From the NCBI GenBank assembly GCA_030647205.1, contig JAUSJO010000002.1, positions 11,261-75,260 of the forward strand: a DNA stretch of 64,000 nucleotides, given 5' to 3'. A program made the position numbers and the translations under genes. Numbering within the stretch: position 1 is the stretch's first letter; every line of letters starts with the position of its first letter. Positions 16,295 to 58,509 of the stretch are shown piece by piece. The notes under the pieces are model-generated. The model ran no database searches. It was given only the letters and a program-made list of their open reading frames with translations, and was not told where the DNA came from. Source of the DNA: a bacterium (GTDB taxonomy: Bacteria > Patescibacteriota > CPR2 > UBA1875 > JAJYID01).

Positions 16295-16305
16295 ATATTA
16301 AAACC

Positions 16306-24233: not shown

Positions 24234-24238
24234 TTAAT

Positions 24239-30104: not shown

Positions 30105-30122
30105 TGATACAATTCAAATAGT

Positions 30123-34715: not shown

Positions 34716-34753
34716 AAAAGAAAAAAGCCCCAGTTCGGTTGAACTGGGGCTTT
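34716..34753. terminator. bidirectional terminator serving the convergent minus-strand operon
   Basis: A-run, GCCCCAGTTC-ggtt-GAACTGGGGC, then TTT. Overlaps the stop of the PurA-like gene. Confidence 0.6.
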
Positions 34754-37077: not shown

Positions 37078-37139
37078 CGCGTGCTCCCTTCGTTTTGAGG
37101 CAGGAAGCGGGCTTATGCACCCGCTTCCTGCCGATTGGT

Positions 37140-38102
37140 TTACAGCCGTTTTGTTTTTGTTTTCCGATTAGCACCAGGCTCATCAGGCAGCTGGTCGGTA
37201 GTGTCTACCTTGACCAGCGCGGTTCCGACAGCGCTAAGCGTTTCTGAGACCTCAGATATCCGCTTTGCATCCTGTCCTCTGTTTTTCATGTCGACTAGAT
37301 AGCCGGCAAGATCCCGAGAACCGCTTGTCATGGCGATTGCTCCCAGCATGACATCTACGACCGCCTTCGGATCTTGCATGATCAGTACATGGTCAGATCC
37401 TAAGAGGTCTTCCCATTGGGCGACAATCCGCTTATTTGTAGAGGAGTTGGCGTCTCCGCTATAGTGTTTGTGAATTAGGAAGACGTTTCCCTTGAACTTC
37501 TTCTTGAGCGCCGTAAAGACTTTCTTGGTGCTCACATTCTGCTTGATGGATTTCCCGAAAAGAGCACTTACATGGTTGGTCTTGACTTCTTCGTATGCTC
37601 CCTCATCGGCGAGGAAAAAGAAGTAAGGGGCTGAGTCTTCAGGAATCTTACAGAAGTGGGCATAGTAATATGCCATTAGCTCATAGGTTTCTCTGGCGCC
37701 ACCGCCACCGCCACCCTCGAGCCATATTTTGGCAAGGTCTGCATCGAGTGCAGTGCCTTCGGCGAAATCGCAAACCTGAATCGGGCAATCGTCGCCGTTA
37801 GCATCACCATTAGCGGCAAACGATATAGACAGATCGGGCAGATAGTTCTGCTGGACAATCTGGCCGAAGAACATCGGCATCTTGTCATAGATTGTGCGAG
37901 CCCAGTTACCCATAGATCCCGTTACATCAAGGTCGATGACAACCGGGTTTTTGTGGGTGCACTCGATGTGTCGACCCTTGGGCATTAGCGCGCTATCAGC
38001 GTAGTCTGAACCGACTGCGCTAGCAGAATCATCACTGAAACTGAATCCTCCGCTGCTTTTACTGCTTCGGTAAACATCACGATCATAACTTCCTCCGCCC
38101 AT
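37140..38102 (-). CDS. cytoplasmic von Willebrand factor A (vWA) domain protein
   Basis: AAGGAG RBS. MIDAS-like DLDVTGSMGN. GGGGGG loop. No signal peptide. Confidence 0.7.
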   Translation of the reverse strand: MGGGSYDRDVYRSSKSSGGFSFSDDSASAVGSDYADSALMPKGRHIECTHKNPVVIDLDVTGSMGNWARTIYDKMPMFFGQIVQQNYLPDLSISFAANGDANGDDCPIQVCDFAEGTALDADLAKIWLEGGGGGGARETYELMAYYYAHFCKIPEDSAPYFFFLADEGAYEEVKTNHVSALFGKSIKQNVSTKKVFTALKKKFKGNVFLIHKHYSGDANSSTNKRIVAQWEDLLGSDHVLIMQDPKAVVDVMLGAIAMTSGSRDLAGYLVDMKNRGQDAKRISEVSETLSAVGTALVKVDTTDQLPDEPGANRKTKTKRL

Positions 38103-38116
38103 GACAGGCTCCTTTC

Positions 38117-39217
38117 CTAGATGTGAAGCGCCTTGAAGCGCTCTTTGCCGAATACCTCCGTACGGAGGTCTACCAGTTCTTCGTGCAGTTCCCAGGCATC
38201 TCGTGGCCGCGTTTTGTAATCCGGGTCGATGAGACGTTCCAGGAACTGCGCTATCCGGTGGTCAACATGAGCAGGGATTGCTCCAGTATCTACATTGCCG
38301 CCAACCAGGTAAATCATGCACTTGCCGAGAGCGTAAATGTCGGCCGTTGGAAGTGGCTGAACTTTCTTTGCAACCTCGGGCGCGCTGTATCCGGGAGTGA
38401 CGCACTTGATATAGTCTCCATCTTTCGGATTTGAAACCGAAAACGTGAAGTCGGTCAAGAATGCGTTGTGGTCCGAGGGCCGGGCGATGATATTCCCCGG
38501 TTCGATATTTTCGTGGATTACTAGGTTTGAGTGTGCGAATCCAAGGACGCTCAGTTGGCGCTCGAAAATCCAGCACATATGCTCTGCAGGTACCCCGTCT
38601 TTATACATGGGGTTTTCCCGGAGCGCATATAAATCATAGCCGTCTATGTAGCGGAGAACTGATGCATCCTTTCCTTCTGTAGTTGTAAAGCTCTCCACCA
38701 AGGTTGGCATTGACTTATGACGTACGCTTCGAAGTATCTGTTGTTCATTTCGGATCAGGTCGTTGTCGTCTGTGTCGCTTACAACCTTGATGACAACTCG
38801 TTCAGTTGATCCATCTTCGGTATAGTCGGCAAGAAAAACATCAGCCAACGATCCGGTAGCAATTTTAGAGTATATGTCATACTCACGAGTTGCCGTCTTG
38901 ATCGTAGTTCTTGGAGTACCGGTTGTCCGAAACGACTTTCTGTCCCAGTACACACCGGTGGTGATGCTTGTTAGGGCATCAACGTAGAACTTGTTAACAA
39001 GAGAGGTAGACTCAGTAGATATATGAACCACTCTTGCTTCCTCGTTTTGGTACCTATCCGGATGACACATCTGAAGAAATTCTTTACGGAGTTTCCTTAG
39101 TGCATCTTTGGCCTCATCTTTATCTTTGTCTTCCGACAAAGGTCCGAAAAGGTCAATCGGATGTTGGCAATCTACGAGGCGTTCATAGAAGCGTTCAAGC
39201 TCGTTCACTGAAAGCAT
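38117..39217 (-). CDS. Hanks-type Ser/Thr protein kinase with N-terminal J-domain-like (HPD) segment
   Basis: N-terminus ...ALRKLRKEFLQMCHPDRY... (J-domain helix II/HPD-like). Kinase subdomains GSLADVF, VIKVV, HENIEPGNI (catalytic loop), TDFTFS (DFG-like), YSAPE. Confidence 0.65.
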   Translation of the reverse strand: MLSVNELERFYERLVDCQHPIDLFGPLSEDKDKDEAKDALRKLRKEFLQMCHPDRYQNEEARVVHISTESTSLVNKFYVDALTSITTGVYWDRKSFRTTGTPRTTIKTATREYDIYSKIATGSLADVFLADYTEDGSTERVVIKVVSDTDDNDLIRNEQQILRSVRHKSMPTLVESFTTTEGKDASVLRYIDGYDLYALRENPMYKDGVPAEHMCWIFERQLSVLGFAHSNLVIHENIEPGNIIARPSDHNAFLTDFTFSVSNPKDGDYIKCVTPGYSAPEVAKKVQPLPTADIYALGKCMIYLVGGNVDTGAIPAHVDHRIAQFLERLIDPDYKTRPRDAWELHEELVDLRTEVFGKERFKALHI

Positions 39218-39232
39218 TTTTTCACCTCACTC

Positions 39233-39892
39233 TCATGTTTTGATGATAAGATCTGCGAACTTTCTTTGGGGTTCGATGAACTCTTGATGTGCCGGCTCAA
39301 TTTGATCCCAAAAAACATCGGTTATTATGTCGGGAGAAATATTAAACATCTCCGCATCCCTGTTGATCCTTCTTTTTAGTCTCAACAGGCCCGAGGCATC
39401 AAGAAATACATATCGGCTAGGCACACCTGTTGACCGAACGATGTCGATAGCAAAAAGACCATCAACAATAATCACCTCTGATGGATTTTTGCTTACCGTT
39501 TCTTTGTGAGATCTTTTATTTCTAGTCAGATCATAGACGGGACATTCGACAGTTTTGTTCGAAACAAGTGCGAGCAAGTGTTCTTTGATCTCTGCTTCCT
39601 GATAAGAACCGGGAGAATCGAACAATGGCAAACCGCCGCTTCCGACCGGAAGTTGCGGATCACTAATGTCGCGAAAATAGTCATCGAGCATAAGTTTTGT
39701 CTGTGAGATGTTAAGTGCCGTTAAGGCCCCTACCAGTTTTTCACAGAAATAACTTTTGCCTGAGCAACTTCCTCCGGCAACAGCAACAACTAGATTTATG
39801 TTTCTTGCGATTCTTTTCGATCTGCCCTTTAATATTGTGTCTGCGATAGCATGCAGACCGTCATTGAACTCATATACAGTTGGTCCGCACAC
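39233..39892 (-). CDS. uridine kinase/phosphoribulokinase-family P-loop nucleoside kinase
   Basis: AGGAGGG RBS then GTG start. Walker A VAGGSCSGKS. LDDYF. RLKRRINRDAE (Udk-like). Confidence 0.65.
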   Translation of the reverse strand: MCGPTVYEFNDGLHAIADTILKGRSKRIARNINLVVAVAGGSCSGKSYFCEKLVGALTALNISQTKLMLDDYFRDISDPQLPVGSGGLPLFDSPGSYQEAEIKEHLLALVSNKTVECPVYDLTRNKRSHKETVSKNPSEVIIVDGLFAIDIVRSTGVPSRYVFLDASGLLRLKRRINRDAEMFNISPDIITDVFWDQIEPAHQEFIEPQRKFADLIIKT

Positions 39893-41363: not shown

Positions 41364-41439
41364 GCGCCCGTAGCTCAGGGGATAGAGCGTATGGTTGCGG
41401 TCCATAAGGCCGGAGGTTCGAATCCTCCCGGGCGCACCA
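41364..41439 (+). tRNA. tRNA-Arg (anticodon GCG as read)
   Basis: GCGCCCG acceptor, D-arm GCTCAGGGGATAGAGC, anticodon stem TATGG/CCATA with loop TTGCGGT, GGTTCGAATCC, A73, encoded CCA. Backbone closely resembles bacterial tRNA-Arg(ACG). Confidence 0.75.
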
Positions 41440-44429: not shown

Positions 44430-44521
44430 GGAAGGGTGCCGGAGTGGTTGAACGGGGCAGTCTCGAAAACTGTTGTCCTGCTTACGCGGGACCGAGAGTT
44501 CGAATCTCTCCCCTTCCGCCA
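44430..44521 (+). tRNA. tRNA-Ser (anticodon CGA)
   Basis: GGAAGGG acceptor, anticodon stem GCAGT/ACTGT with loop CTCGAAA, long variable arm, GAGAGTTCGAATCTCTC, G73, encoded CCA. Confidence 0.85.
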
Positions 44522-44610: not shown

Positions 44611-45342
44611 ATGTTTGATACAAAACTAAAAACATCTGAATATATAAACTTAACGGTTACACACGATTGTACCCGCCGGTGCTTATTTTGTGTGGATCGT
44701 TATCGTGGAAGCGGGGAAATGGTTAGTCTTGACGCCGTCCATCGTGTAGCGGCATTTGCTTCGAGAAGAGGGATTAAGGACATACTTATTACTGGCGGGG
44801 AGCCAACTCTTCATCCCGATATAGTGGAGATTGTGAAAATAGTTAAAAAATATGGACTTCGCGTCATTATGACGACTAACTATGACCGGCCGAACGTATT
44901 TGAGAAACTTGATGGGATCGTTGATTGCTTCAATATTTCTTTCTATAATCAAGCCCTTTTGCCAAAACAAAAAGAAACAAGGTCCGATATTACTATCCAT
45001 GCATTGATTTATGATGAACAACTGGAGACACAAGAAAAACTGGATCGGTTTATTGATAGATATCATCACTACGGGCATTTGAAATTTTCAACTTTAACTC
45101 CCTGCAATGCATGGACGACCGAACACCAGCACGTCTCATACTTAGACGATCTTGAGTGTGAATGGATAGTTCTATTTAATGAGATGCTAGCCCAAGTCTA
45201 TCGTGGAGTAGTTATAAAAAGGTATGATAGGATTATTAGCAGAAACGCGTCCCAGTCTTATAAGGCTCACGTTGATGGGACTATTACTAAGTCGTGGGAC
45301 AGGGAGAGAACCTCCACTCTCTCCGCCAAGGCAAAAGTTTGA
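44611..45342 (+). CDS. small radical SAM enzyme (no SPASM domain)
   Basis: CTRRCLFC (CxxxCxxC) and GGEPTLHPD. 243 aa. Confidence 0.7.
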   Translation: MFDTKLKTSEYINLTVTHDCTRRCLFCVDRYRGSGEMVSLDAVHRVAAFASRRGIKDILITGGEPTLHPDIVEIVKIVKKYGLRVIMTTNYDRPNVFEKLDGIVDCFNISFYNQALLPKQKETRSDITIHALIYDEQLETQEKLDRFIDRYHHYGHLKFSTLTPCNAWTTEHQHVSYLDDLECEWIVLFNEMLAQVYRGVVIKRYDRIISRNASQSYKAHVDGTITKSWDRERTSTLSAKAKV

Positions 45343-46393: not shown

Positions 46394-46654
46394 CTACCCC
46401 TTGCGACCGGAGGCCTTAACAAACTCGACCTGGTCTCCCTTTTTGAGGGTCTTGTTCCAGTCCGTGACCTGGTTTCCGTTCACGAAGGCGTTCGGCTTTG
46501 ACCGAAGTCTGCCACCGGCGCCCATGATCTTTGCCGCTTCCTTGAGAGTCTTGTTCGGTGCGATTTCTCTTGTGTCGCTGCCGTACCTTACTGTGGTCAT
46601 CAAGGACTCGCCCTTGTCGTCTGACCGGTAACTGTTCTCAGTTTCTGCTGACAT
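46394..46654 (-). CDS. ubiquitin-like beta-grasp protein (ThiS/MoaD/Ubl-like) with C-terminal ...GRKG
   Basis: AAGGGGGTGG RBS then ATG (MSAETEN...). C-terminal half ...FVNGNQVTDWNKTLKKGDQVEFVKASGRKG fits the ThiS/Ubl pattern. GC-rich island. Confidence 0.5.
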   Translation of the reverse strand: MSAETENSYRSDDKGESLMTTVRYGSDTREIAPNKTLKEAAKIMGAGGRLRSKPNAFVNGNQVTDWNKTLKKGDQVEFVKASGRKG

Positions 46655-47321
46655 GTTTCCACCCCCTTTCCTGAGGTAGAATTTTTCTTTGCATTTCCGG
46701 CTCGATACTGACATAAATCTCCATAGTGGGGTTACCGGAGACGATGTCGGCGTAAGCTTCTATCATGGCGAGACCAACCATTCGGTTTGTCTCCGCGATT
46801 TGGGGATGCGAGCGTGATAACGCAAGGCATCCTTGTTCGAAAGGCCCCTTGTCTGTGGGGCTTGCGATCTCGGGATGGAAGTGGGCCAACGGCGGAGTTA
46901 TCGAAACTCCATCTTTCCGCCAGAAAACCGATACATTTCCATCTTTGAGCTCATTACCTCCGGATACGAGGAGGATGTCGCTCAGGTTCCTTTCGCAATG
47001 GGTGTCCACGATATTTCTTGTCTTGTGGTTGTCCACTGCCAGAAAGACCGTGTCGCCAGGGCCAACCAGAACTCCGACATTCTCAGGAGTTATGTAGCTG
47101 GGTATCCCTGTTGCCTCTACCCCTTGGGCAGAAAGCGCGCTTGCGGTAACGATCGCCTTGTTCGCACCAACCTGAGCAAACGGCTGCCTCTCTTTGTTCT
47201 TCTTTTCGTACTTGTCTCCGTCTATGAGGATCAGCTTTGCTTCAGGATATTTCTCGATCAGATACGGCAGCATTTGGTTAGTAATGCCGCCAACACCGAC
47301 TATCTTGATGACTTCTTTCAT
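46638..47321 (-). CDS. E1-like ThiF/MoeB-family adenylyltransferase (short form)
   Basis: Rossmann IVGVGGITNQMLPYL. LAVDNHKTR (ThiF/E1 ATP-binding arginine region). Confidence 0.7.
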   Translation of the reverse strand: MKEVIKIVGVGGITNQMLPYLIEKYPEAKLILIDGDKYEKKNKERQPFAQVGANKAIVTASALSAQGVEATGIPSYITPENVGVLVGPGDTVFLAVDNHKTRNIVDTHCERNLSDILLVSGGNELKDGNVSVFWRKDGVSITPPLAHFHPEIASPTDKGPFEQGCLALSRSHPQIAETNRMVGLAMIEAYADIVSGNPTMEIYVSIEPEMQRKILPQERGWKHVSRN

Positions 47322-47983
47322 GCATTCTCACCGCCTTTTAGGTATCTCCAGATCCGGGACAGATAAAAGCGCATGAGGACGCGGAAGCCTCGGGACTTAT
47401 GAACTTGTGGAATTTTGACAGAGGTAAGCTCCTCCAGTTCCACTTCTTCCAGTGCCGGGGGCGGTTCGAAGATGTCTTCAGGATAGAAAAATACCCTTTT
47501 ATCCCCGACGATCACTGAACAGCTGATCGAAGGAAAAACGCTTGTGAGCAAATTCCCAATGGTGATATGAATGCCTGGCATACCCAGCTCGTCCTGATCA
47601 TCAAACTGTGAGTGTCCGGCAGGTTCGTCGACATGCGAGTGTAAGTCGCCTATCTGGTTGTACCCGGGCGGGCTTGGAGGCAGGTCGCTATGAATGACGA
47701 AAACTCCAACAGCAGTCTGATCTGGGATGACGAAGCGATATTCCTGCTCATCGTGAGAGTAATACATCGCGATGTAGAGCTCAGCATTCTGGTTCTTGGC
47801 GACATACCTCATTTGCTCAACGATTTCGTTGAACCTTGAGTAGGGTATCCGCGGTACTTTCAGCGAAACTCCTTCTTTGATGTCAGGCATCTTCCATAGC
47901 GGTATAGACTCAGCCGTTGCGCTGTAGAAGTCATTGCTCTCGACCGCAAAAATGCCTTTTTTACCGGTTTCGTTGCTCAGCAT
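47318..47983 (-). CDS. JAB/MPN (JAMM) metalloprotease
   Basis: JAMM motif HSHVDEPAGHSQFD (HxH-x7-S-xx-D) with an upstream Glu. Overlaps its neighbours by 4 nt. Confidence 0.65.
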   Translation of the reverse strand: MLSNETGKKGIFAVESNDFYSATAESIPLWKMPDIKEGVSLKVPRIPYSRFNEIVEQMRYVAKNQNAELYIAMYYSHDEQEYRFVIPDQTAVGVFVIHSDLPPSPPGYNQIGDLHSHVDEPAGHSQFDDQDELGMPGIHITIGNLLTSVFPSISCSVIVGDKRVFFYPEDIFEPPPALEEVELEELTSVKIPQVHKSRGFRVLMRFYLSRIWRYLKGGENA

Positions 47984-47984
47984 A

Positions 47985-48599
47985 TTACACCTCTTTCAAG
48001 CTCTCGTAGAAGTCAGTAGGTAGATACAAGTCACCACTTTTGAGTCTATGGCTTCCGGCACTGGCGAAGTAACGCATTTCTAGTTCAAGGACTGACTGTG
48101 GGGTCATTCTTGAAAGAAGAGCCCATCTGTAAGGATTCCTTACCCGCCAATCTGAGGCCATGAGAAGATCCAGTTTGTTATGCATGATGCCGAAACCTTC
48201 ACTCCAGAAATGGTTCACGATGCCTACAGCCCCTTGAAGGGGTGAAGTCGGCGTATAGAGGGAAAGAGTGTCGGCGCAGAGCTCTCCTTTGGTAGTGAAA
48301 TGAGGAAGGAAGGGTACGTACAAGTTATCGTTGGGACTTTCAAGTGGCTTTCTTGCGAAAAACACACTAATCCCCGAATTCACGTATCCACCCTGATCCT
48401 TTTCCCCATACATTCTTACAAAGAAGTAGGTGTAAGGCATGATAAGCTTAAGCGTAAAGGGAAGATTCCAGACTTTCAGTGATCTGAAAGCCGGAGGATA
48501 TTCCAGTACTTCCCAATATACGTGACCTCCTTGGGAGATCTCTGCTACCCTTGTATACCCCTCCCCTCCGACGAGAAGAGGATATTTTACGTCTGTCAT
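47985..48599 (-). CDS. E2-like (UBC-fold) candidate
   Basis: PHFTTKGELCADTLSL resembles HPN...G.ICLDIL around the E2 catalytic Cys. GAGGAG RBS before the internal ATG, which is taken as the start. Confidence 0.4.
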   Translation of the reverse strand: MTDVKYPLLVGGEGYTRVAEISQGGHVYWEVLEYPPAFRSLKVWNLPFTLKLIMPYTYFFVRMYGEKDQGGYVNSGISVFFARKPLESPNDNLYVPFLPHFTTKGELCADTLSLYTPTSPLQGAVGIVNHFWSEGFGIMHNKLDLLMASDWRVRNPYRWALLSRMTPQSVLELEMRYFASAGSHRLKSGDLYLPTDFYESLKEV

Positions 48600-48600
48600 C

Positions 48601-48999
48601 TTACTCCTCATTTCTGTCGATTTGGACGGGGCAGTTTTTGCTGTTTTTTGCTGTTTCTTGGATCAAAACGTTGATTATCTTGTTAGCTCTTTCCACTACA
48701 GGGCGAAGACTTTGATACAGTTTTTCTTTCTGTTCTGCTTGGTATGCTTCCTTGGCTTCAACCTCAGTTACTGCGGTTGAGTAAAAGGATGCAAACAAAA
48801 GAACAAAAACAGAAAGAGCCACGATAGTTCCCCAACCTCTAAGGAAGCGGGGATATCGGTTCAGCTTTACTCTGACGGGGGTTAATACTAACATTCTGAA
48901 GAACCCGTAGAGCAGTCCGGTGACTACAAATGCTATGGAGGCCTCTACTATGACAATCCAGATTCGGGCATCACCTGCCGCAAATGAAGGTGTGAACAT
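48601..48999 (-). CDS. two-TM membrane protein heading the E2-JAB-E1-Ubl operon
   Basis: IWIVIVEASIAFVVTGLLYGF and TIVALSVFVLLFASFY helices plus a coiled-coil-like tail. Stop overlaps the next gene. Confidence 0.4.
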   Translation of the reverse strand: MFTPSFAAGDARIWIVIVEASIAFVVTGLLYGFFRMLVLTPVRVKLNRYPRFLRGWGTIVALSVFVLLFASFYSTAVTEVEAKEAYQAEQKEKLYQSLRPVVERANKIINVLIQETAKNSKNCPVQIDRNEE

Positions 49000-49681: not shown

Positions 49682-50497
49682 TTATTTAGTTTGAGTGAGG
49701 GGATCTATTTGGAGGGCTTTTTGTTTGTGCTCGTTTGCTTTAGTCTGATCCCCCATTTTATCGTAAATCTTTGAGGCCATGATATGGGCATCGCGGTAAT
49801 TATCTTTTTCCTTTAATATAGTTAGAATGTCTTTTTCTGCTAAGTTCAAATAATTTTCAGAGTAGTACTTATTTGTCGCTTCTAACTTAAGGTAAAGTGG
49901 ATTTTGAGCTTCCTTATAGGTTGCGAAGTACTTATCTAAATCATATAAATTACATTGTTTTGCTTTTGTGAAGCTATTTTTTGCCTTATTAAAGTCATTT
50001 AAGTTTACAAATGCACCATAACAGCTAGATGAAGTTGGGTCTAAATCGGAAAGTTGGTTCAAGTAGTTTTCGGCCACTCCCCTATCGCCCTTTTTAAGCT
50101 CAACGAGAATCAGTCCTTTTAGTGAGTCAGAATTCGACTTTTTATTTTTTGCTTTTGTAAAAGTATTTTCTGCCTCTTTCACTTTATTTTCACTCAGATA
50201 CAAATTTCCAAGTTTATTCAAAATATCGACCTCTCCCCTACCCACCATGATTTTCTCTGCAGAATCATTCTTACCAATAGCAATATAGAGGTCGACAAGG
50301 GGCAGAATATTATCCGGTTTTCCTCGTAAGGTCAGTGACTTTTCAAGCGCTAGTATTTTCCCCTGTATATCCGTTGTTTCACGTGAAACTTTTATATAGT
50401 CACTTGCTTTACTATCAGCCCAAAACATATAGCCAGTCAAAATAATGATTGAGGCTGCTGCAATTATGATTAAGATTATTGTCTTTTTCTTGTTCAT
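49682..50497 (-). CDS. membrane-anchored TPR-repeat protein
   Basis: N-terminal TM. Repeated 34-aa helical units (W/LG/Y/A/F/A/P pattern). Low GC. Confidence 0.55.
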   Translation of the reverse strand: MNKKKTIILIIIAAASIIILTGYMFWADSKASDYIKVSRETTDIQGKILALEKSLTLRGKPDNILPLVDLYIAIGKNDSAEKIMVGRGEVDILNKLGNLYLSENKVKEAENTFTKAKNKKSNSDSLKGLILVELKKGDRGVAENYLNQLSDLDPTSSSCYGAFVNLNDFNKAKNSFTKAKQCNLYDLDKYFATYKEAQNPLYLKLEATNKYYSENYLNLAEKDILTILKEKDNYRDAHIMASKIYDKMGDQTKANEHKQKALQIDPLTQTK

Positions 50498-50650
50498 GGA
50501 TTTATTATCATATACTTTCAGGAAAAAAGCGAATAAGTTGTGTAAAACTGTGGATCTGGTAGCAGGAGATTTTTTAAAAGGTCAATCTTGAGCACGAATT
50601 TGGTTAAAAAAAGTTCATGCTTACTTTTCCACATGTTTGTCTGCGCTAGC

Positions 50651-52828
50651 TTAGAATTCAATCTTTTCCGGCCATTTAGAGATAATCAGGGGTTCTTTTT
50701 CATCTAGATTTTCCCAAATTGACTCAGTAACAAATGGCATAATAGGATGAAGTAGTTTTAATGAATTTTTCAGAACAACATCAAGAGTATATTGAGCGGC
50801 AAGTTTACTCTTGTCGTTTTCGCGGATACGAACTTTTGTATCTTCTATACAGTTATCGCAGAAATCATGCCAGAAAAAGTCATATATTACTTCGATCGCG
50901 TGTTGAAAGTCGTATTTACCTAGGTAGTTATTGGTAGTTTCGATAGTCTGATTTAGTTTTTTGAGTATTTCTTTGTCATTTTTAGTTAGACTTGGCTTTA
51001 TTTCCTTCTCAAATGTTTCACGTGAAACATCTTTATAGTCTTCCAAATTCATCAAAGTAAATCTGGTAGCATTCCAGACCTTATTAGCAAACCTTTTTCC
51101 ATTCAAGATAGCGTCTTCAGAGAACTTTATATCCTGTCCCTGCCCAATCTGCCATAAAAGGCCAAATCTGGTAGCATCCGTGCCATATTTTTCTATCAAT
51201 TCCAGCGGATCAACCCCTGTTCCAAGTGATTTAGACATTCTTCTGCCTTCACTGTTAAAAACTGTGGGGTTAATATATACGTCCTTAAACGGAACTTCTC
51301 CCATGAACTCGATGCCAGACATTATTATGCGTGCTACCCATAGATAAAGTATGTCTCTGGCTGTGGCGAGAAAAGTTGTAGGGTAAAAATAATCCAAATC
51401 TTTCGTTTTTTCCGGCCAACCAAAGGTTGCAAACGGCCAAAGCGCACTTGAAAACCATGTATCAAGTACATCCTCATCTCTTTTTAGCTTCGATGATTTA
51501 CATTTTGGACATTTACGTTCAGATTTCTTGCTTTCTACATCTTCCATGGCCCACTTTTCGGAAACGATGATTTCTCCGCATTCGCAGTACCATACCGGTA
51601 TTTGATGCCCCCACCATATTTGCCTGGATATGCACCAGTCATTTATATTGTTCATCCAGTCTAGGTAAACCTTTTTCCATTTTTTAGGATGAAACTCAAC
51701 TTCCCCGTCTTTAACGGCCTTAATGGCCGGCTTTGCCAACTCTTTCATGCTTACGTACCATTGCAAGGTCAGAGAAGGCTCCATAATGGTATTGCATCGA
51801 TAACAATGCCCTACATTATGGATGTATGGTTTGGCTTGACTAAGCCATTTACCCTCTTTTAGCATCTCGATAACTACATCTCGAGCTTCAAATCTATCAA
51901 GTCCTGCGAACTCTTCTCCTGCCTCAGGTGTCATCTTGCCTTCAAGGTCGATAACGATTATTTTGTCTAGCTTGTGCCTTTTGGCTATCTCAAAGTCGTT
52001 AGGATCGTGAGCAGGCGTAACCTTAACTGCTCCTGTACCAAACTCCATGTCTACGATATCATCTGTGATAATCGGTATTTTTCGGCCTTGTATAGGTAAA
52101 ATCACATTTTTCCCAATCAAGTCTGTATATCTTTTATCTTTTGGATTTACGGCAACGGCCGTGTCTCCAAGCATGGTTTCCGGCCGGGTTGTTGCTACTG
52201 TAAGCTCTCCCCCGCCTTCTATCTCATATTTAATGTACCAGAGGAAACTCTCATGTTCTTCGTGCTCAACCTCAAGATCAGAGAGAGAAGTTCCGCATCT
52301 TGGACACCAGTTGGTTATGCGATAATCACGATAAATATAACCCTTGTCATAGTAATGAGTGAAGGCTTTTAAAATTGCCTTTGTATAGCCTTCATCCATA
52401 GTAAAGCGGGTTCTGGACCAGTCGCACGAGCAACCTAGGGTTTTTAGTTGTCCCAAGATTCTTGCTTCATACTCATCCTTCCATTTCCAAACCTCTTTCT
52501 CAAAATTGGCTCTGCCAAGGTCAAATCTCGTTTTTCCCTCTTTGGCGAGTTTCTTTTCTACCACAGACTGAGTAGCAATGCCGGCGTGATCTGTGCCGGG
52601 GAGCCACTCTGCAGGGATTCCTTTCATCCTATTCCATCTTACAAGCGTATCTTGAATGGTATTATTTAGTGCGTGTCCCATATGCAAAGAACCTGTGACG
52701 TTTGGAGGGGGGATAACCACTGTGAAGGGCTTTTTGCCACCTTCAAGTTTAGGGGTGAAATATCCGCCTTTTTCCCATTTTTCATATATATTTTTTTCGT
52801 TTTCTTCCGGTTTGTATGACTTGTCCAT
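50651..52828 (-). CDS. valS: valyl-tRNA synthetase (compact, 725 aa)
   Basis: PPPNVTGSLHMGHAL (HMGH), KMSKS as RMSKSLGT. CP1 editing and anticodon-binding regions present. Lacks the long C-terminal coiled coil. Confidence 0.85.
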   Translation of the reverse strand: MDKSYKPEENEKNIYEKWEKGGYFTPKLEGGKKPFTVVIPPPNVTGSLHMGHALNNTIQDTLVRWNRMKGIPAEWLPGTDHAGIATQSVVEKKLAKEGKTRFDLGRANFEKEVWKWKDEYEARILGQLKTLGCSCDWSRTRFTMDEGYTKAILKAFTHYYDKGYIYRDYRITNWCPRCGTSLSDLEVEHEEHESFLWYIKYEIEGGGELTVATTRPETMLGDTAVAVNPKDKRYTDLIGKNVILPIQGRKIPIITDDIVDMEFGTGAVKVTPAHDPNDFEIAKRHKLDKIIVIDLEGKMTPEAGEEFAGLDRFEARDVVIEMLKEGKWLSQAKPYIHNVGHCYRCNTIMEPSLTLQWYVSMKELAKPAIKAVKDGEVEFHPKKWKKVYLDWMNNINDWCISRQIWWGHQIPVWYCECGEIIVSEKWAMEDVESKKSERKCPKCKSSKLKRDEDVLDTWFSSALWPFATFGWPEKTKDLDYFYPTTFLATARDILYLWVARIIMSGIEFMGEVPFKDVYINPTVFNSEGRRMSKSLGTGVDPLELIEKYGTDATRFGLLWQIGQGQDIKFSEDAILNGKRFANKVWNATRFTLMNLEDYKDVSRETFEKEIKPSLTKNDKEILKKLNQTIETTNNYLGKYDFQHAIEVIYDFFWHDFCDNCIEDTKVRIRENDKSKLAAQYTLDVVLKNSLKLLHPIMPFVTESIWENLDEKEPLIISKWPEKIEF

Positions 52829-53040
52829 CTTTTGCCTTTCTTAAAATAAAAAAACCCGCTTCTTGGGGGTCCGATTACTCGGATGGTACCACCCCAATTC
52901 CACGTGGCGCTTCATCTTAGCTTTTACGGAGCTACCGGTGAGTTCTAATTTTCAGCGATTGCCAAATTTCTTCTCACAGCTCACAGGATGACATTAGGTC
53001 CTGTTCGAATGCTTTTATCAAATTGTTATGAAAGTTTACA
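52829..53040 (-). promoter_or_regulatory. candidate T-box leader upstream of valS
   Basis: Minus-strand leader contains AAUUGGGGUGGUACCAUCCG (T-box core AAUUAGGGUGGUACC, 1 mismatch, UGGU bulge compatible with discriminator A). Then a GC hairpin and U7 run before the RBS. Possible GUC-A specifier in a CAGGA/UCCUG stem further upstream. Confidence 0.45.
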
Positions 53041-53158
53041 TCAAAAACGCCAAGAAGTCAAAGAGGATTGAAAAAATAAGCATTTTATAGTAAAATGTGG
53101 TCTCTTGGGTAATCCCAACGAATTATTGATAGAAAAATATAGATACTGGAGGTAACAA

Positions 53159-54637
53159 ATGATCGGATTGCTTGGGCGGAAAATCAAGAAAGTCGTTATC
53201 ATAGAGCCGAAATCGGCGGATAGGCAAGTTTATGGACTGTTCAAAATACCGCGCGGGGTTGTCCTTTTAGCAACCATTTTGAAGACGCTGGGGTACGAAG
53301 TGAAGGTCTATTGTGAGGATTTTGCCCAGATAGACTGGGACGATGTTCTGAGCGCCGACGTGGTTTGCCTCTCGTTGCTTACAGCTACAGCCAAGAGAGG
53401 ATATGCTGTAGCCAAGGAGGTTCGTGTGCGAGAGATTCGTGCTGGTGCGCCGTATAAACCAATCATCATGGGTGGTGTCCACCCAACATTTGCTACCGAA
53501 GAGGCGCTCGTAAATAGTGCTGACTTTGTGGTAAGGCATGAGGGAGATAAGACACTGCCTGAGCTTCTGGAGGCTATCGAGGGCAAGCGCGAACTTGAAA
53601 GTGTACTCGGTATTGCGTTTTTCCGCGATAATCAGGTTATAAAAACCGCGGAGAGGCCGTTTCTCACCAACGAGGAGCTCGATGAACTTCCTTTTCCCGA
53701 CAAGACCCTTGTTGTGAACTGGGAAGAAATCACAACCGATCTGGTCATCACGTCTAGAGGATGCCCATTCAACTGTAATTTCTGTTCGGTGACTGCTATG
53801 TTTGGGAGAAAGTTCCGGATCAGAAGCGTCAAGAGGGTCCTCGATGAGCTGGAAGTACTGTCGGTAAATGCCGGCGGCAAAAGGATAGTTGTTTTTATCG
53901 GCGACGACAACTTCACCGCGAAAGAAAAACGCGCGGTTGAAATCGGTGATGGTATCATCGAGAGGGGACTAAACCTCTCTATGATCATTCAGGCGAGAAC
54001 CAATACGTCGGAAGCGACTCTTGCTGCGCTGAAAAGGGCAGGAGTAGGTCGTGTCTGCGTAGGTCTTGAGTCGGTAAGCGACGAGGCGCTCAAGGAGAGC
54101 AACAAGCGCCAGGAAGTCAAAGACATCATCAACTTCATCGAAAGATGCGACAGGGTCGGGGTCAAGATCCATGGTATGTTTGTGTCGGGCTTTGATAATG
54201 ATACGCCCAGAACGATACGGGGTATCGTCAAGTTCGCTAAGAAGTACCGCAGGATTCTGGAAACAATCCAAATAACAATCCTGACGCCGTTTCCGGGGAC
54301 GATTCTCTACGATCTCATGGTTAGTGGTGGTGACATAGTCTTCCATGATTGGGATCTCTACAATACCCACACCGTGGTACACTTGCCCAAGAAAATGAAG
54401 CCCTCAGAACTTCAGAGGGAAACGTACTTGGCAATGAAGCGCTTCTACTCCGTGTACGGTATCTTCATCTCACTCCTCAAGCTCAACAAAACCTCAATCG
54501 TTATCAGTCTTTTCGGCTGGACAGAGGCAAGGCGGTGGCGCTGGGGAAAAGGGTTTAGATCCCATATGCGCATTCTGCGCAGGATGGAACGTCGCGGTTT
54601 ATTTACGCAAAACGTCTTACCGGACACCACTTCCTAA
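53159..54637 (+). CDS. cobalamin(B12)-binding-domain radical SAM enzyme (class B)
   Basis: N-terminal Rossmann-like B12-binding region. GCPFNCNFC (CxxxCxxC). 492 aa. ~52% GC. Confidence 0.7.
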   Translation: MIGLLGRKIKKVVIIEPKSADRQVYGLFKIPRGVVLLATILKTLGYEVKVYCEDFAQIDWDDVLSADVVCLSLLTATAKRGYAVAKEVRVREIRAGAPYKPIIMGGVHPTFATEEALVNSADFVVRHEGDKTLPELLEAIEGKRELESVLGIAFFRDNQVIKTAERPFLTNEELDELPFPDKTLVVNWEEITTDLVITSRGCPFNCNFCSVTAMFGRKFRIRSVKRVLDELEVLSVNAGGKRIVVFIGDDNFTAKEKRAVEIGDGIIERGLNLSMIIQARTNTSEATLAALKRAGVGRVCVGLESVSDEALKESNKRQEVKDIINFIERCDRVGVKIHGMFVSGFDNDTPRTIRGIVKFAKKYRRILETIQITILTPFPGTILYDLMVSGGDIVFHDWDLYNTHTVVHLPKKMKPSELQRETYLAMKRFYSVYGIFISLLKLNKTSIVISLFGWTEARRWRWGKGFRSHMRILRRMERRGLFTQNVLPDTTS

Positions 54638-54852
54638 TAGCAGAATAGTATCTATCCATTGTCCCCTTAAGTCATCGTACTTGAGGGGACTCTTTTTTTA
54701 GACTAATTTTAAACTCGGACTTGCCATATAAAATCAAAATTAGACTTGCGAAAAGTCAGTGTTTATGGTATGATAGCAGTCCTTAGAGCATTATCTCTAA
54801 AGCAAATTGAAAAAAAGAGTTCATTTCAAAATCCTAGAGAAAGGTGATCCAA

Positions 54853-55233
54853 ATGAGCACTAATGCAGTTGATGTTATCCAGATAATACTGTTGGTCGCA
54901 GGGCTATCGCTTATGGTAAGCATGCGTAATTTGCTGAAAAATGCTATGGCACCCGGCAAAAGAGTATCGGTTGCGGAAAAGCCCCAAGATATAAACATGA
55001 AAGACCTGTTCTTCCTAAAAATGGTATACAAGAGGTTGGGCAGGATCGTGGTAGCTAAAATAACCGTACTTATTGTCATAGCGGTGACGCTCTTCTTCCA
55101 ATGGAATGCTCTATTCTTCATCGCCGCGGTAGGCTATGCGGTTTTTCTGTATATTTACTTGAAGCTATCTGTCAACAAATGTCGCCGTAACGTGGAGACA
55201 TTGATCGGGCAAGTTTCTGCTGCGAAAGGGTGA
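54853..55233 (+). CDS. small membrane protein, hypothetical
   Basis: GAAAGGTGA RBS, 3 predicted TMs. Confidence 0.4.
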   Translation: MSTNAVDVIQIILLVAGLSLMVSMRNLLKNAMAPGKRVSVAEKPQDINMKDLFFLKMVYKRLGRIVVAKITVLIVIAVTLFFQWNALFFIAAVGYAVFLYIYLKLSVNKCRRNVETLIGQVSAAKG

Positions 55234-55238
55234 GTGCG

Positions 55239-55637
55239 ATGGATAGTCTTGTTCTTTTAGGAGGATTTGCTCTTGCTGCGTCAGGATTATCCTCGGTCAT
55301 AAAAGCCTTCAACTGTAATAATCAATGGAGATCAAGGTTGATGTGGTTTCGGGCTTGTATTTCGATCGGGGTTCTTAGCTGCATTGCGGCAGGGATTTTA
55401 ATGTCGTCTGCCTTTGCGTCTAGGATTCAAGGCGGGGAAGGACCTCCGGGAACGAATGCTGTTGGAATAGGCTTTATTGTTGTAACTTGGTTGCTAGCCA
55501 TTGCCGGTTCATTCATGTTTATAAGAGACCGGAATCTGCTAAAAAAGCAGATGGTGGTCAAGGGTCAAAGGTTAGATCAGGTCGAAGCAGAAGAAGACGC
55601 TAAGTGGGCGAAGTCCCTACAATCCGAGAAAGGATGA
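55239..55637 (+). CDS. small membrane protein, hypothetical
   Basis: AAAGGGTGAG RBS, 3-4 TMs. Confidence 0.4.
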   Translation: MDSLVLLGGFALAASGLSSVIKAFNCNNQWRSRLMWFRACISIGVLSCIAAGILMSSAFASRIQGGEGPPGTNAVGIGFIVVTWLLAIAGSFMFIRDRNLLKKQMVVKGQRLDQVEAEEDAKWAKSLQSEKG

Positions 55638-55642
55638 GCTAA

Positions 55643-56011
55643 ATGATCGCGGGCATGATTGTTCTGGGATTTCTTGTAGTGAACTACTATCTTCATCGCA
55701 AAAACGGCCGCATCTTTTCCAAACAATTAGAATTCATCAAGACGAATGGTGATGTTGAAAAGTGGGCCGATGATGAAGAGAAATGTTTGACCTATCTGGC
55801 GTTCTTTAAGAGTCAACGAAAGGTTGATGTGCTCCAGATGATAATCTGTCTTGTAGTGGCAATGGTGTTGTATTTCAGCAATATCGTGGAAGTAGGCATT
55901 CTTTATCTGCTCGCTTCTCTGTTTTACTACGGTCATTATGTGGTAGACGGTTGGGGCAGGTCAGTGGCAGTAGAGAAGATTAAAAAGGCGGGTGGACTGC
56001 AAGCGGAATGA
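55643..56011 (+). CDS. small membrane protein, hypothetical
   Basis: GAAAGGATGAG RBS, 3 TMs. Confidence 0.4.
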   Translation: MIAGMIVLGFLVVNYYLHRKNGRIFSKQLEFIKTNGDVEKWADDEEKCLTYLAFFKSQRKVDVLQMIICLVVAMVLYFSNIVEVGILYLLASLFYYGHYVVDGWGRSVAVEKIKKAGGLQAE

Positions 56012-56058
56012 TGTTACTTTTTAGAAGGCCGCGGTGCTTTAAGCACTGCGGCCTTTTC

Positions 56059-57105
56059 TTATGCTAATTTTAGATTCGGGTTTGGTGTGAGCGATTTTGG
56101 CTCAGTGAAGTCAAACTCTTTTTGTTTATAATATGCAGCGGCGCCGATCATTACCGCGTTATCGGTGCAATATTTAAGATCAGGCATATAAAAATTTACA
56201 TTTAATTCCTTGCACATTTCCTGTAGTTTTTCTCTTAATTTCTGATTTGCAGCTACACCACCGGAGAGGATGAATGATTTTGGTGCGTATTTTTCTATAG
56301 CTCGCTGACTATTTTGGGACAGGGTATCAACTAGCGTTTTTTGAAATGAGGCGGCAATATTCGCCTTATCTTGTTCTGATAGCGATTTCGACTGTTTCAC
56401 TACATTTAAAACAGCAGTTTTTAGCCCTGATAAGCTAAAATCGAGACTAGGATCAGGATACTCCAGAAATCCCTCAGAGTTTCTTTTTGGTTCCGGTGTG
56501 AGATCAACTACCGGAAATTTGTACTTGTTTACATCTCCTTTTTTAGCCAAATTCGAAATATTTGGGCCGCCGGGATAGGGGAGAGCAAGCAGTGCTGCGA
56601 CCTTGTCAAATGCTTCGCCGGCAGCATCATCTCTGGTTTGGCCCACAATTTTGAAGTTATAATGGTTTTCAACTTCGATTAACATTGTGTGACCACCTGA
56701 AACAAGTAAAGTAACAAGAGGGAACTGAGGTTGTTTGGTGCTTACCCAGTTTGCATAAATATGTCCTTCAAGATGATTGACGGCAATCAACGGTTTATTT
56801 TTTAGGATTGAGAGTGTTCTGGCGGTTTCTGTACCGACTATTAAGCTTCCGACGAGTCCGGGACCTTGGGTTACGGCTATAGCGTCAATGTCTTCCCATG
56901 ACATTTTTGCTTCGGAAAGGGATTCTTTAACAGCTGGGATTATCGTTTGTACATGAGCGCGAGCAGCTACCTCAGGCACGACACCGCCATATTTGGCATG
57001 GATGTCTATTTGTGAAGCGACTACGTTCGATAAAACTTCACGGCCGTCTTTCACGATTGCTGCCGCCGTTTCATCACAACTTGTTTCGATGGCTAATATA
57101 TTCAT
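56059..57105 (-). CDS. tsaD: tRNA N6-adenosine threonylcarbamoyltransferase
   Basis: MNILAIETSCDETAAAIV... Kae1/TsaD signature. His-His metal site HLEGH. Confidence 0.9.
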   Translation of the reverse strand: MNILAIETSCDETAAAIVKDGREVLSNVVASQIDIHAKYGGVVPEVAARAHVQTIIPAVKESLSEAKMSWEDIDAIAVTQGPGLVGSLIVGTETARTLSILKNKPLIAVNHLEGHIYANWVSTKQPQFPLVTLLVSGGHTMLIEVENHYNFKIVGQTRDDAAGEAFDKVAALLALPYPGGPNISNLAKKGDVNKYKFPVVDLTPEPKRNSEGFLEYPDPSLDFSLSGLKTAVLNVVKQSKSLSEQDKANIAASFQKTLVDTLSQNSQRAIEKYAPKSFILSGGVAANQKLREKLQEMCKELNVNFYMPDLKYCTDNAVMIGAAAYYKQKEFDFTEPKSLTPNPNLKLA

Positions 57106-57205
57106 AACAAGAGATATTATACCTTATTTGAAGCTAAAAGTCTTGAAAGAAATCATTTTTTTGGTTATAATCACCATAATCAACTCCCACTCAAGGAGGA
57201 GCACT

Positions 57206-57556
57206 TTGCAAAAGCTTGGTAAACTCAGGTTCTTCATGCCTGTCATAATGCAGTTATTTGTCTGGACCTCTCCATTTGCTCTTTATTTTGCAATCAGGCT
57301 TCTGGGAGATGGTGATCTTTTCAATATGGTTGCTACAGGATACATGATGTTCCTAGTCGTGTCGTGTTGGATATTCTCTCTCAAAGACAGGTTGATGGAG
57401 AGGCATTATTTAACAGCTTTTACTCTTGCTTCATTATTCGGCCTTTTCACGGGCCATTTGATCCTTTTCATCGGGATGTGGCTGCTTCTCATGTGCGCAT
57501 CCGGGATAAAAATGATTGTTGAAGCAGAAAAAGAGACCCGAGTTCGTGGATTTTAA
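57206..57556 (+). CDS. small membrane protein, hypothetical
   Basis: AAGGAGGAG RBS then TTG start. 3 TMs. Confidence 0.35.
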   Translation: MQKLGKLRFFMPVIMQLFVWTSPFALYFAIRLLGDGDLFNMVATGYMMFLVVSCWIFSLKDRLMERHYLTAFTLASLFGLFTGHLILFIGMWLLLMCASGIKMIVEAEKETRVRGF

Positions 57557-57708
57557 TAATATTTGAGGCCGTTGCTTTATGCAGCGGCCTTTTCCATTGG
57601 GCTATAAATATACTTGACAAAACATGTATCTTGTGGTATATTATCGAGCATTGTCAATATAGCGAACAATCCAAAAATCGCTAAGCAACCTTGAAAAGGG
57701 AGAGAGAA

Positions 57709-57903
57709 ATGACTCAAGTTAAAATTTTTCAGGGACTGGGTTATGAAGTCGAAGAGAAACTCAATGGATGGCTGGATGAGGAAGGTGCAGGGATTGAAAT
57801 CACCCACGTTGCTCAGTCGGCTTCTGTTTCAAGTCTCGATGGCCAAATCGCCACAACTGTCTTCTACGAGAAAAAGAAAGACCAAAAAGCCCGCAAGAAG
57901 TAA
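57709..57903 (+). CDS. small soluble protein, hypothetical
   Basis: AAAGGGAGAGAGAA RBS then ATG. 64 aa with a Lys-rich tail. Confidence 0.35.
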   Translation: MTQVKIFQGLGYEVEEKLNGWLDEEGAGIEITHVAQSASVSSLDGQIATTVFYEKKKDQKARKK

Positions 57904-57941
57904 AAAATTGCGAAGGTAAACAACGACCTAAGGGAGAGACA

Positions 57942-58325
57942 ATGGAAGCGTCACAGGCAATGGAAATGAACAAACCTGAAGACATCAGTCTTGAGGGAAT
58001 GCTCATAAGATGGCTCAGTCATCTTCGGCATGATGAATGGTCCAAAGTGCCCTACTATCTGGCCATGGCCGGTATCGGAGCCGTATGGAGCATGTTTGTA
58101 GGCATTATGATAGTGCTAAGCTGGGTATGGCTGCCCGGCGAGATGGCATCAACAACTACCCTTCTGATGGTTATGTTGGGAGTGGCGGTATTAACTCATC
58201 TTCTCTTTTCCCTTGGCAGAGATGTCAAGCGGTATAAAAAGGATGAGGAGGGTGCAGTGGGTGAATATGATAATCTGGAGCATCTCTTTGCCGATGACAA
58301 AGAAGATAAGTCTCCCCTCTGGTAA
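57942..58325 (+). CDS. small membrane protein, hypothetical
   Basis: TAAGGGAGAGACA RBS. 3 TMs. Confidence 0.4.
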   Translation: MEASQAMEMNKPEDISLEGMLIRWLSHLRHDEWSKVPYYLAMAGIGAVWSMFVGIMIVLSWVWLPGEMASTTTLLMVMLGVAVLTHLLFSLGRDVKRYKKDEEGAVGEYDNLEHLFADDKEDKSPLW

Positions 58326-58335
58326 GGAGCCATAC

Positions 58336-58509
58336 ATGCATAAAATGATTTGGGCCGCGGTAATACTTCTGGTAAGTGGTGCGCTGGTCGGGATTGTTGG
58401 CCGGTTTCTAGGCGTCCATTTCGACTCCCGTTTGGGAGGCATCTTGTTTATTATCATTGCCTACGTAGCCGGAGCTATCGCTGTCAAAACGATAGAACGG
58501 ATTTCCTAA
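58336..58509 (+). CDS. very small two-TM membrane protein, hypothetical
   Basis: AAGGAG RBS 6 nt upstream. 57 aa. Confidence 0.35.
   Translation: MHKMIWAAVILLVSGALVGIVGRFLGVHFDSRLGGILFIIIAYVAGAIAVKTIERIS

Follow-up and report, generated by a model that had tools for sequence, protein, structure and literature searches.

A class B radical SAM enzyme in a probable replacement slot between valS and tsaD of a Patescibacteria-type bacterium, with small membrane genes that appear to have been inserted separately

In a 64-kb stretch of bacterial DNA (positions 11,261 to 75,260 of contig JAUSJO010000002.1; hereafter, the window), the genes valS and tsaD are separated by a gene encoding a class B radical S-adenosylmethionine (SAM) enzyme, that is, one with a B12-binding domain, and by three small open reading frames (ORFs), s1 to s3, encoding predicted membrane proteins. 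Comparison with related genomes leads us to think it reasonably probable that the space between valS and tsaD is a replacement slot, occupied here by the class B enzyme, and that s1-s3 constitute a separate, later insertion. A first-pass annotation had treated the enzyme and the small genes as a single block. The bounds it gave to that block, the leader of valS on one side and the 3' end of tsaD on the other, proved accurate; the leader is a T-box, and the tsaD stop codon is at 56059.

The slot was compared in six genomes whose ValS proteins are 81-96% identical to each other. Nucleotide homology between the window and the loci of its relatives ends at about 52950-53086 on the valS side and resumes at about 56048-56117, at the end of tsaD. 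In the same position, four relatives (Table 1) carry a class B radical SAM enzyme of similar size (497-561 aa) but of another type, called here the DUF4070 type, with the HpnP-like domain architecture PF02310 + PF04055 + PF13282. The window enzyme has no match to the C-terminal PF13282 domain, hence is not of this architecture, and it is only 23-28% identical to the DUF4070-type enzymes. They in turn are 48-55% identical to one another, except for those of L091 and L086 (75%). Considered over all six genomes, the slot enzymes range from 23 to 86% identity in a manner incongruent with the identity of ValS: L083 and L091 have ValS proteins 91% identical and slot enzymes 49% identical, and for L085 and L086 the figures are 88% and 54%. 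The orientation of the slot gene also varies among genomes. In L083, L085, and L086, the interval from the enzyme to tsaD is free of small membrane genes; in L091, two small ORFs without annotation occur on the tsaD side. The first-pass annotation considered it surprising that a class B enzyme, with its need for cobalamin, should occur in a reduced genome. The class of the enzyme is confirmed, but its presence is less of a surprise, given that such genes recur in relatives.

Table 1. Features of the valS-tsaD region in the window, and occupants of the corresponding slot in relatives
Feature or locus	Coordinates	Strand	Remarks
valS (valine-tRNA ligase, 725 aa)	50651..52828	-	Left flank of the variable slot, conserved; homology with relatives spans the gene
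T-box leader of valS	52862..53018	-	RF00230 match; carries GGGTGGTACC T-box sequence and terminator/antiterminator
Promoter-like site for radical SAM gene	53068..53096	+	TTGAAA-17-TAAAAT, 10/12; consensus match only
Class B (B12-binding-domain) radical SAM enzyme, 492 aa	53159..54637	+	GGAGGT ribosome-binding site 6 nt upstream
N-terminal Rossmann-type cobalamin-binding domain (predicted)	53246..53569	+	aa 30-137 by Pfam; PF02310
Radical SAM core	53744..54235	+	aa 196-359; PF04055
Intrinsic terminator after radical SAM gene (predicted)	54661..54700	+	12-bp stem with 6 GC pairs (54661-54690), then T-run; identical in L001
tsaD 3'-end relic, copy 1 of direct repeat D1	54692..54723	-	Reads ...ASPSLKLV-stop; right after enzyme terminator
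Promoter-like site before small genes	54746..54774	+	TTGCGA-17-TG-TATGAT, extended -10; kept in L001; consensus match only
s1, 126-aa orphan membrane protein (predicted), MDO8507045.1	54853..55233	+	Frame opens with GTG at 54844; ATG at 54853 has ribosome-binding site
s2, 132-aa orphan membrane protein (predicted), MDO8507046.1	55239..55637	+	ORF opens at 55230
s3, 122-aa orphan membrane protein (predicted), MDO8507047.1	55643..56011	+	Modeled as three long helices
GC-rich hairpin between convergent s3 and tsaD, then TTTTCTT	56029..56055	.	Probable terminator, read from sequence
True tsaD 3' end, copy 2 of D1	56053..56084	-	Reads ...PNPNLKLA-stop
tsaD (t6A synthesis)	56059..57105	-	Right flank of the slot, conserved; stop at 56059
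L083/L084, DUF4070-type class B radical SAM in slot	5831-7516 of L083		ValS 93% identical to that of window
L091, DUF4070-type class B radical SAM in slot	1738-3240		ValS 93% identical to that of window
L085, DUF4070-type class B radical SAM in slot	8124-9617		ValS 85% identical to that of window
L086/L087, DUF4070-type class B radical SAM in slot	8271-9770 of L086		ValS 82% identical to that of window
L089, empty slot			ValS 72% identical to that of window; tsaD adjoins valS
L090, one unrelated 129-aa ORF in slot			ValS 71% identical to that of window

The concept of replacement flexible genomic islands comes from surface-polysaccharide loci of marine bacteria. The valS-tsaD locus resembles such islands in its fixed site between core genes, in carrying nonorthologous content of the same class in close relatives, and in the mosaic identity of its flanks. 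It is unlike them in that a single gene, about 1.5-3 kb, takes the place of a large glycosylation cluster, and here six genomes were compared. Two observations might reflect exchange through the flanks. One is an apparent relic of the end of tsaD within the island, considered below. The other comes from alignment of the window (49715-55998) with a sister genome represented by a 15-kb Logan contig, L001 (3009-9277), which carries the same gene order plus one extra small gene, s4. The identity between the two is a mosaic, running from 100% to 56% per 100 nt, with stretches at 100% (e.g., 49915-50114) beside others at 56-85%, and dS varies from 0.18 to 0.94 between adjacent genes. Such a pattern suggests frequent recombination within the population.

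A control search with ValS, made to gauge sampling, returned about 70 relatives at 60-93% identity. The lineage is thus well sampled, yet the window enzyme is restricted to two genomes, those of the window and its sister. All of the ValS relatives have the short form of the protein (about 710-740 aa, lacking the C-terminal coiled coil), as does the window ValS, which is itself 100% identical to a protein from a metagenome-assembled genome at NCBI. The only lineage-specific name among the relatives is 'Patescibacteria group bacterium'. These observations and a type IV secretion/pilin cluster in the window, which also contains dnaA-dnaN-recF, rml genes, and genes for FemAB and Mur ligase, bear out the view of the first-pass annotation that the host has a reduced genome and indicate a bacterium of the Patescibacteria type.

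At least one occupant of the slot may have come from outside the lineage. The DUF4070-type enzymes had at least 272 relatives in a metagenome scan, and among the best 80, only L091 lies near valS or tsaD. Its enzyme shares 80% protein identity and 73-75% nucleotide identity with those encoded at L092 5995-7497 and L093 883-2385, contigs from the same metagenome (Ga0172371). L092 and L093 have a GC content of 53% and a GC fraction at third codon positions (GC3) of 0.6-0.75, while the L091 contig has a GC content of 42%. To our eyes neither L092 nor L093 looks Patescibacterial, and the likeness of the enzymes suggests a recent transfer between lineages. By eye, proteins of L092 resemble an ABC transporter and a two-component system.

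The slot enzyme of the window has both domains expected of its class. PF02310 scored 47.8 bits (gathering threshold 32.1) and PF04055 scored 82.2 bits (threshold 29.5) on ORF 53159-54637, as the first-pass annotation had anticipated. The CxxxCxxC cluster motif, C202-x3-C206-x2-C209 (53762-53785), has all three cysteines invariant in 25 family members. An AlphaFold2 model built from a 25-sequence alignment has a mean predicted local distance difference test score (pLDDT) of 91.4 and a predicted template modeling (TM) score (pTM) of 0.90, and its N-terminal domain alternates strand and helix with pLDDT above 90. The top 17 matches found by Foldseek in the Protein Data Bank (PDB) were all to class B-type enzymes (MgmA/QCMT, AprD4, CysS, OxsB, TsrM, and TokK), with E from 4e-25 to 6e-17, TM-scores for the query (TMq) of 0.61-0.72, and 436-590 aligned columns. 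Since so many columns are aligned, the N-terminal domain must be part of the match; the model aligns over nearly its full length with OxsB, TsrM, TokK, CysS, and MgmA, all bound to cobalamin. A B12-binding fold is therefore predicted at the N terminus, and its absence, which would have told against the first-pass assignment, was not encountered. The gene is, to judge from its substitutions, functional and under strong purifying selection: dN/dS relative to L001 is 0.086 (0.041 for valS and 0.071 for tsaD).

Does the domain bind cobalamin? AprD4 and ArsL belong to the same sequence network as the class B enzymes and do not bind the cofactor (PMC12931638), and AprD4 has the highest TM-score (0.72) of the structures matched, so the fold by itself does not settle which cofactors the enzyme uses. 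The N-terminal domain might similarly be a degenerate Rossmann fold and the enzyme a B12-independent lyase, dehydratase, or cyclase. The window offers this idea some encouragement, as Pfam annotation of its approximately 60 ORFs revealed no families for cobalamin transport, salvage, or adenosylation, and Rfam found no cobalamin riboswitch within its 64 kb; these negatives agree with what the first-pass annotation led one to expect, come from 64 kb of a genome that measures at least 428 kb, and decide nothing. We nonetheless consider a B12-independent enzyme unlikely. PF02310 is matched above its gathering threshold, and the match to the NCBIfam model for AprD4 is confined to the radical SAM core (aa 187-422, 61 bits), while HpnJ and BchE do much better, the match to BchE spanning the N-terminal domain. 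Moreover, the positions S72, T75, T77, G105-G106, and H108, near the ends of the Rossmann strands, are invariant in 25 diverse relatives, and these include the SxL-like and GG positions (S72 and G105-G106). The DxHxxG motif is absent from the window enzyme, as one would expect, since the solved cobalamin-bound members all hold the cofactor base-off and lack the histidine of that motif (PMC12931638). If the enzyme does use cobalamin, then we infer that the organism must obtain it from its surroundings or from a host.

A protein search with the enzyme returned 868 homologues at E <= 1e-10, of which that of the sister genome is 86% identical and the next best 43%. A scan of species-representative genomes gave 584 relatives, the best at 42% identity; the best 80 of these span many bacterial phyla and include members of Nitrospirae, Bacillota, Thermoleophilia, delta-proteobacteria, Aminicenantes, Omnitrophota, spirochaetes, and several archaeal lineages. 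No neighboring gene is conserved across 39 species-representative loci of the family (with ORF calling crude at the high-GC loci, where antisense shadow ORFs occur), hence the family looks stand-alone and not part of a biosynthetic cluster. In simple neighbor joining (NJ) trees, the window enzyme and that of its sister form a long branch within the family, and the DUF4070 types fall outside it. Grouping of the window enzyme with a sequence from Anammoxibacter (86% bootstrap) was set aside as probable long-branch attraction. The only homologue from a related small-genome contig (842 kb), P0119, is 37% identical, stands apart from the window enzyme in the NJ tree, and lies amid recG, NUDIX, thioredoxin, tig, clpP, and rpoB genes, a context unrelated to the slot. 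A literature search on class B radical SAM enzymes in Patescibacteria or the candidate phyla radiation (CPR) found nothing specific.

By its sequence, then, the enzyme is a member of a widespread, uncharacterized, stand-alone clade, to which HpnJ and BchE are the closest of the curated families. It falls short of the cut-off of every curated NCBIfam model; the top scores are to HpnJ, BchE, and ApyD. HpnJ (TIGR03471), a hopanoid-associated protein with a proposed role in contraction of a glucosamine ring to the cyclitol ether, is the best of these, at 165.9 bits over aa 85-433 but far from its equivalog cut-off of 577.6. HpnJ and the window enzyme both consist of a B12-binding domain and a radical SAM core, without DUF4070, in about 470-490 aa, and in the class B network both fall into the section for 'other or unknown transformation' (PMC12931638; PMC13459092). 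No hopanoid genes (shc, hpnH/G/I/K) are found among the Pfam families of about 60 ORFs in the 64-kb window. Hosts of the Patescibacteria type are not expected to make hopanoids. BchE (TIGR02026), the anaerobic cyclase of Mg-protoporphyrin IX monomethyl ester, is second, at 150.3 bits against a cut-off of 481.35, with a match (aa 31-438) that includes the N-terminal domain. Many members of the clade have been named BchE by JGI pipelines, but there is no bacteriochlorophyll context at the window enzyme, and the clade occurs in nonphototrophs. Solved class B-type enzymes, namely MgmA/QCMT (9ccb; sequence match E = 1.6e-13), OxsB (5ul4), TsrM (6wte), TokK (7kdx), CysS (9n1b), and AprD4 (6fd2), match the whole chain in fold but are 14-20% identical to it and act on unrelated substrates. 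Models of methylases active on ribosomally synthesized and post-translationally modified peptides (RiPPs) fall below their cut-offs on the enzyme: 79.1 bits versus 281.85 for rSAM_ocin_1 and 126.8 versus 750 for ApyD.

Most members of the family end in a tail of about 51 residues that is aromatic and basic. The tail contains 9-14 W/F/Y residues in most members (2-14 across all 25) and, in forms of about 51 residues, 8-14 R/K and 0-3 acidic residues; two longer forms exceed the R/K and acidic ranges. Such a tail would fit a role at the membrane interface or in nucleic acid binding.

Two further radical SAM genes lie in the window, making three in all. One (33100-34239, +) encodes a radical SAM/SPASM protein whose best match is to peptide maturases, at 187 bits, below the cut-off. 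The other (44611-45342, +) encodes a 243-aa protein with only weak MoaA/NrdG-like matches.

The small genes were first described as following the enzyme immediately. In fact, a spacer of 206-215 nt intervenes, with a predicted intrinsic terminator and a promoter-like site, both of which are kept in the sister genome. Right after the terminator lies what appears to be a relic of the end of tsaD. This sequence and the true end of tsaD form a direct repeat, D1, whose copies match at 25 of 32 nt, a level attained by 1 of 60 dinucleotide shuffles, and bracket a segment of 1361 bp containing s1-s3. TsaD of L085 ends in a similar fashion, PDPNLKLV. Since the relic directly follows the terminator, it would seem that the terminator of the enzyme gene once abutted the end of tsaD, as it does in L083 and L085. 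Taken together, relic, terminator, and promoter-like site point to s1-s3 as a second, later insertion, probably transcribed separately from the enzyme. Beyond s3, the hairpin between it and the convergent tsaD is kept in L001 with a wobble pair shifted to the adjacent position in the stem. The spacer itself is 96-97% conserved, and it was considered as a possible structured RNA. That idea was dropped, as stretches at 96-100% occur elsewhere in this mosaic region too and Rfam recognized only the T-box.

The same evidence bears on whether enzyme and small genes might be one functional cassette, in which the enzyme modifies the s-proteins post-translationally, or the s-proteins anchor the enzyme or carry its substrate or cobalamin. 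That s1-s3 occur only in the two genomes with the window type of enzyme and in none of the DUF4070-type relatives is what such a cassette would predict, and all four genes are enriched in GC3 to some degree. Also, s4 of L001 is a tandem paralogue of s3 (41-42% identity), and such paralogues recall the multiple precursors of peptide systems. Finally, MgmA, the best structural match, is a protein methylase; like Mmp10, it methylates a protein, as RiPP methylases do peptides. However, enzyme and s1 are kept apart by a terminator, both strong and conserved, and by a further promoter-like site, the relic implies two insertions, and none of the 39 family loci has a conserved neighbor or a homologue of s1-s3. 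Nor do s1-s3, at 122-132 aa and with three predicted membrane helices, resemble RiPP precursors, and the RiPP methylase model rSAM_ocin_1 falls well below cut-off, as noted above. A cassette is rather unlikely in light of these considerations, and neither the unity attributed to the block by the first-pass annotation nor the conservation of neighborhood that would have attested to it was borne out.

What are s1-s3? Three small membrane ORFs had been predicted, and this is confirmed: each has about three predicted hydrophobic helices and its own ribosome-binding site, of the GGTGA/GGATGA type, 5-7 nt ahead of the ATG. NCBI annotates them as hypothetical proteins, with locus tags Q7S53_00565-00575 on a 428,588-bp contig, and none matches a Pfam family above threshold, s2 having a weak, sub-threshold match to DUF996. 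Each is a singleton cluster in a collection of 15 billion proteins, and the other loci that were fetched and screened (L003-L170 together) contain no homologues. When s3 was run by phmmer exhaustively against 1.84e9 representatives, only s3 and s4 of the sister genome were found. A match of s3 to P0247 (724 aa, E = 9e-4) was judged spurious, as this is a repeat protein aligned only at a short charged loop. No homology of s3 to s1 or s2 was detected (hhalign probability 5% for s3-s1 and 1% for s3-s2); only s3 and s4 are paralogous. An AlphaFold2 model of s3 reached pLDDT 85.9 from just three sequences, but it is a generic helical bundle, for which a fold search of the PDB gave no match under E = 0.5.

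In the absence of database homologues beyond one sister genome and of any Pfam family, one might suppose s1-s3 to be chance open frames in an intergenic insert. We regard this as very improbable. The frames are intact in both genomes despite nucleotide divergence of about 8-12%, the ribosome-binding sites lie at the right distance in both, and a confident model of s3 arose from so few sequences. Relative to L001, dN/dS is 0.24 for s1 (p = 2e-4), 0.27 for s2 (p = 3e-5), and 0.39 for s3, and the pooled changes, 63.7 nonsynonymous and 57.3 synonymous, depart from expectation with a binomial p = 3.8e-9. The depletion of nonsynonymous changes indicates that the enzyme and s1-s3 are all genes under purifying selection, s1-s3 more loosely. 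To judge by their homologues and predicted helices, s1-s3 are lineage-restricted membrane proteins.

Such small genes may be found elsewhere nearby. Beyond tsaD there is a second run of small ORFs (57203-58509, +; L001 10868-11681), also conserved, which encode a soluble protein of 70 aa and two membrane proteins, one of 127 aa with 2-3 predicted helices and one of 57 aa with two; their dN/dS is 0.20-0.36. L083 has a different small ORF, of 123 aa, on the far side of tsaD. Small genes of this sort are therefore common in the neighborhood. An ORF at 56993-57556 (+, 187 aa) was considered as a member of the block and rejected. Its first 40 or so codons overlap tsaD in antisense and owe their conservation to this overlap alone; on L002, the start was called at about 57206 (116 aa).

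The turnover of enzymes might instead be the mark of a defense-type or conflict island, with radical SAM enzymes acting against phages or in dealings with host cells. A role in conflict would explain why several nonorthologous class B enzymes have passed rapidly through one locus in genomes with ValS proteins as alike as those compared here. Small membrane proteins adjoin the enzyme, and the enzyme itself has a weak match to the PADLOC model PDC-M51A (52.9 bits, E = 6.4e-15), confined to the radical SAM region. That match, however, is what general similarity among radical SAM proteins would give, s1-s3 match no PADLOC model and have no close relatives in the IMG/VR viral contigs (which also led us to discard a viral origin for them), and the broad family of the enzyme is stand-alone, with no conserved partner. 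It is quite unlikely that the slot is a defense island.

The block had also been called GC-shifted. This is clear for the radical SAM gene, with GC 0.497 and GC3 0.582 (third of 64 ORFs and the highest among the long ones) against a mean GC3 in the window of 0.445 (sd 0.076) and values of 0.394 for valS and 0.355 for tsaD. The shift is modest for s1, s2, and s3 (GC3 0.53, 0.43, and 0.50; GC 0.43-0.46). Gene groups at 36-38 kb and 46-48 kb are as GC-rich as the block.

Several observations weigh against a replacement slot with a class B enzyme and a later insertion of s1-s3. High GC3 is found also in DUF4070-type slot genes that may be older (0.59 in two of three, 0.46 in the third), so the GC3 of the window enzyme may reflect something other than recent arrival. 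The enzyme sits on a long NJ branch, with no identifiable donor. D1, on which the second insertion leans, is short, and its degree of match was equaled in one shuffle. The confinement of s1-s3 to genomes with this enzyme type is as a functional cassette would have it. AprD4, the structure with the best TM-score, does without cobalamin (PMC12931638), and the 64 kb at hand contain no gene for uptake or salvage of cobalamin and no riboswitch, although this weighs little, as it concerns part of the genome. Lastly, a tail so basic and aromatic might just as well serve in RNA binding, and both of the genes flanking the slot are tRNA-related.

With these points in mind, the replacement-slot account would run as follows. 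By analogy with the chemistry of its family (PMC12931638, PMC13459092), the enzyme would bind a [4Fe-4S] cluster on C202, C206, and C209 and cleave SAM to a 5'-deoxyadenosyl radical; cobalamin, held base-off in the N-terminal Rossmann domain, would then take part in methylation or rearrangement of an unactivated carbon. The slot would be a replacement island in which class B enzymes are swapped, partly by recombination in the conserved flanks and partly by transfer from other lineages. Before the window genome and its sister diverged, the window type of enzyme would have displaced a DUF4070 type in their common ancestor. Later, s1-s3 would have been inserted between the terminator of the enzyme gene and tsaD, probably with a transcript of their own and not as required partners of the enzyme. 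The least secure element of this account is that the substrate may be a component of the membrane or envelope, a suggestion based on the conserved aromatic and basic tail, on the fact that the nearest families modify lipids, and on turnover like that of an island.

One can go further, tentatively, to a bolder reading that stands or falls as a whole: the slot would be a dedicated swap site, the organism an ultra-small symbiont that scavenges B12 and is under diversifying selection for radical modification of its envelope, and s1-s3 newly recruited parts of the surface. This would mean that at least four unrelated or distant versions of the enzyme were swapped within about 5-20% divergence of ValS and that at least one exchange, with organisms that do not look Patescibacterial, was recent (80% identity). 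If this were true, the target in the envelope would be a lipid, a glycan, or a surface protein.

Some other features of the window deserve mention. The T-box of valS matches RF00230 over its full length (model positions 1-219) at 44.5 bits, E = 8.4e-8; because this is under the gathering score of 93, the default Rfam search passed over it. Its first stem region is much shortened. The segment 8790-12678 contains dnaA-dnaN-recF and is likely the region of the replication origin, and 13500-25500 contains a type IV secretion system (T4SS)-like cluster (VirB4/TraG-like ATPase, VirB6/TrbL, PrgI, several T4SS pilins, and SLT and NlpC/P60 hydrolases). Four tRNA-Ser genes (TGA, GCT, GGA, and CGA) lie within 15 kb, at 30015-30215, 32911-33000, and 44430-44521, and a tRNA-Arg(GCG) gene at 41364-41439. 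A GC-rich run at 34752-39892 (-) encodes adenylosuccinate synthetase, a truncated pyruvate-kinase-barrel protein, a protein of no family, a Ser/Thr protein kinase, and a uridine kinase-like protein. The highest GC3 in the window (up to 0.57-0.68) is found at 46394-48999 (-), a cluster conserved in L001 that encodes a ThiF-like E1, a JAB domain protein, and three proteins without a family match. The cluster has the look of a module for ubiquitin-like conjugation or deconjugation.

On its own, the enzyme adds another to the uncharacterized class B radical SAM proteins, and s1-s3 are typical of the orphan membrane genes of small-genome bacteria. The comparison of the slot is the more useful result. 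A minimal genome keeps a costly Fe-S enzyme, probably dependent on cobalamin, at one site and swaps its identity. This pattern suggests that the lineage depends on scavenged cobalamin and that there is selection for variety in the modification the enzyme performs. The locus also offers a small set of natural variants, with the same flanks and different enzymes, that may guide biochemistry on a functionally dark clade.

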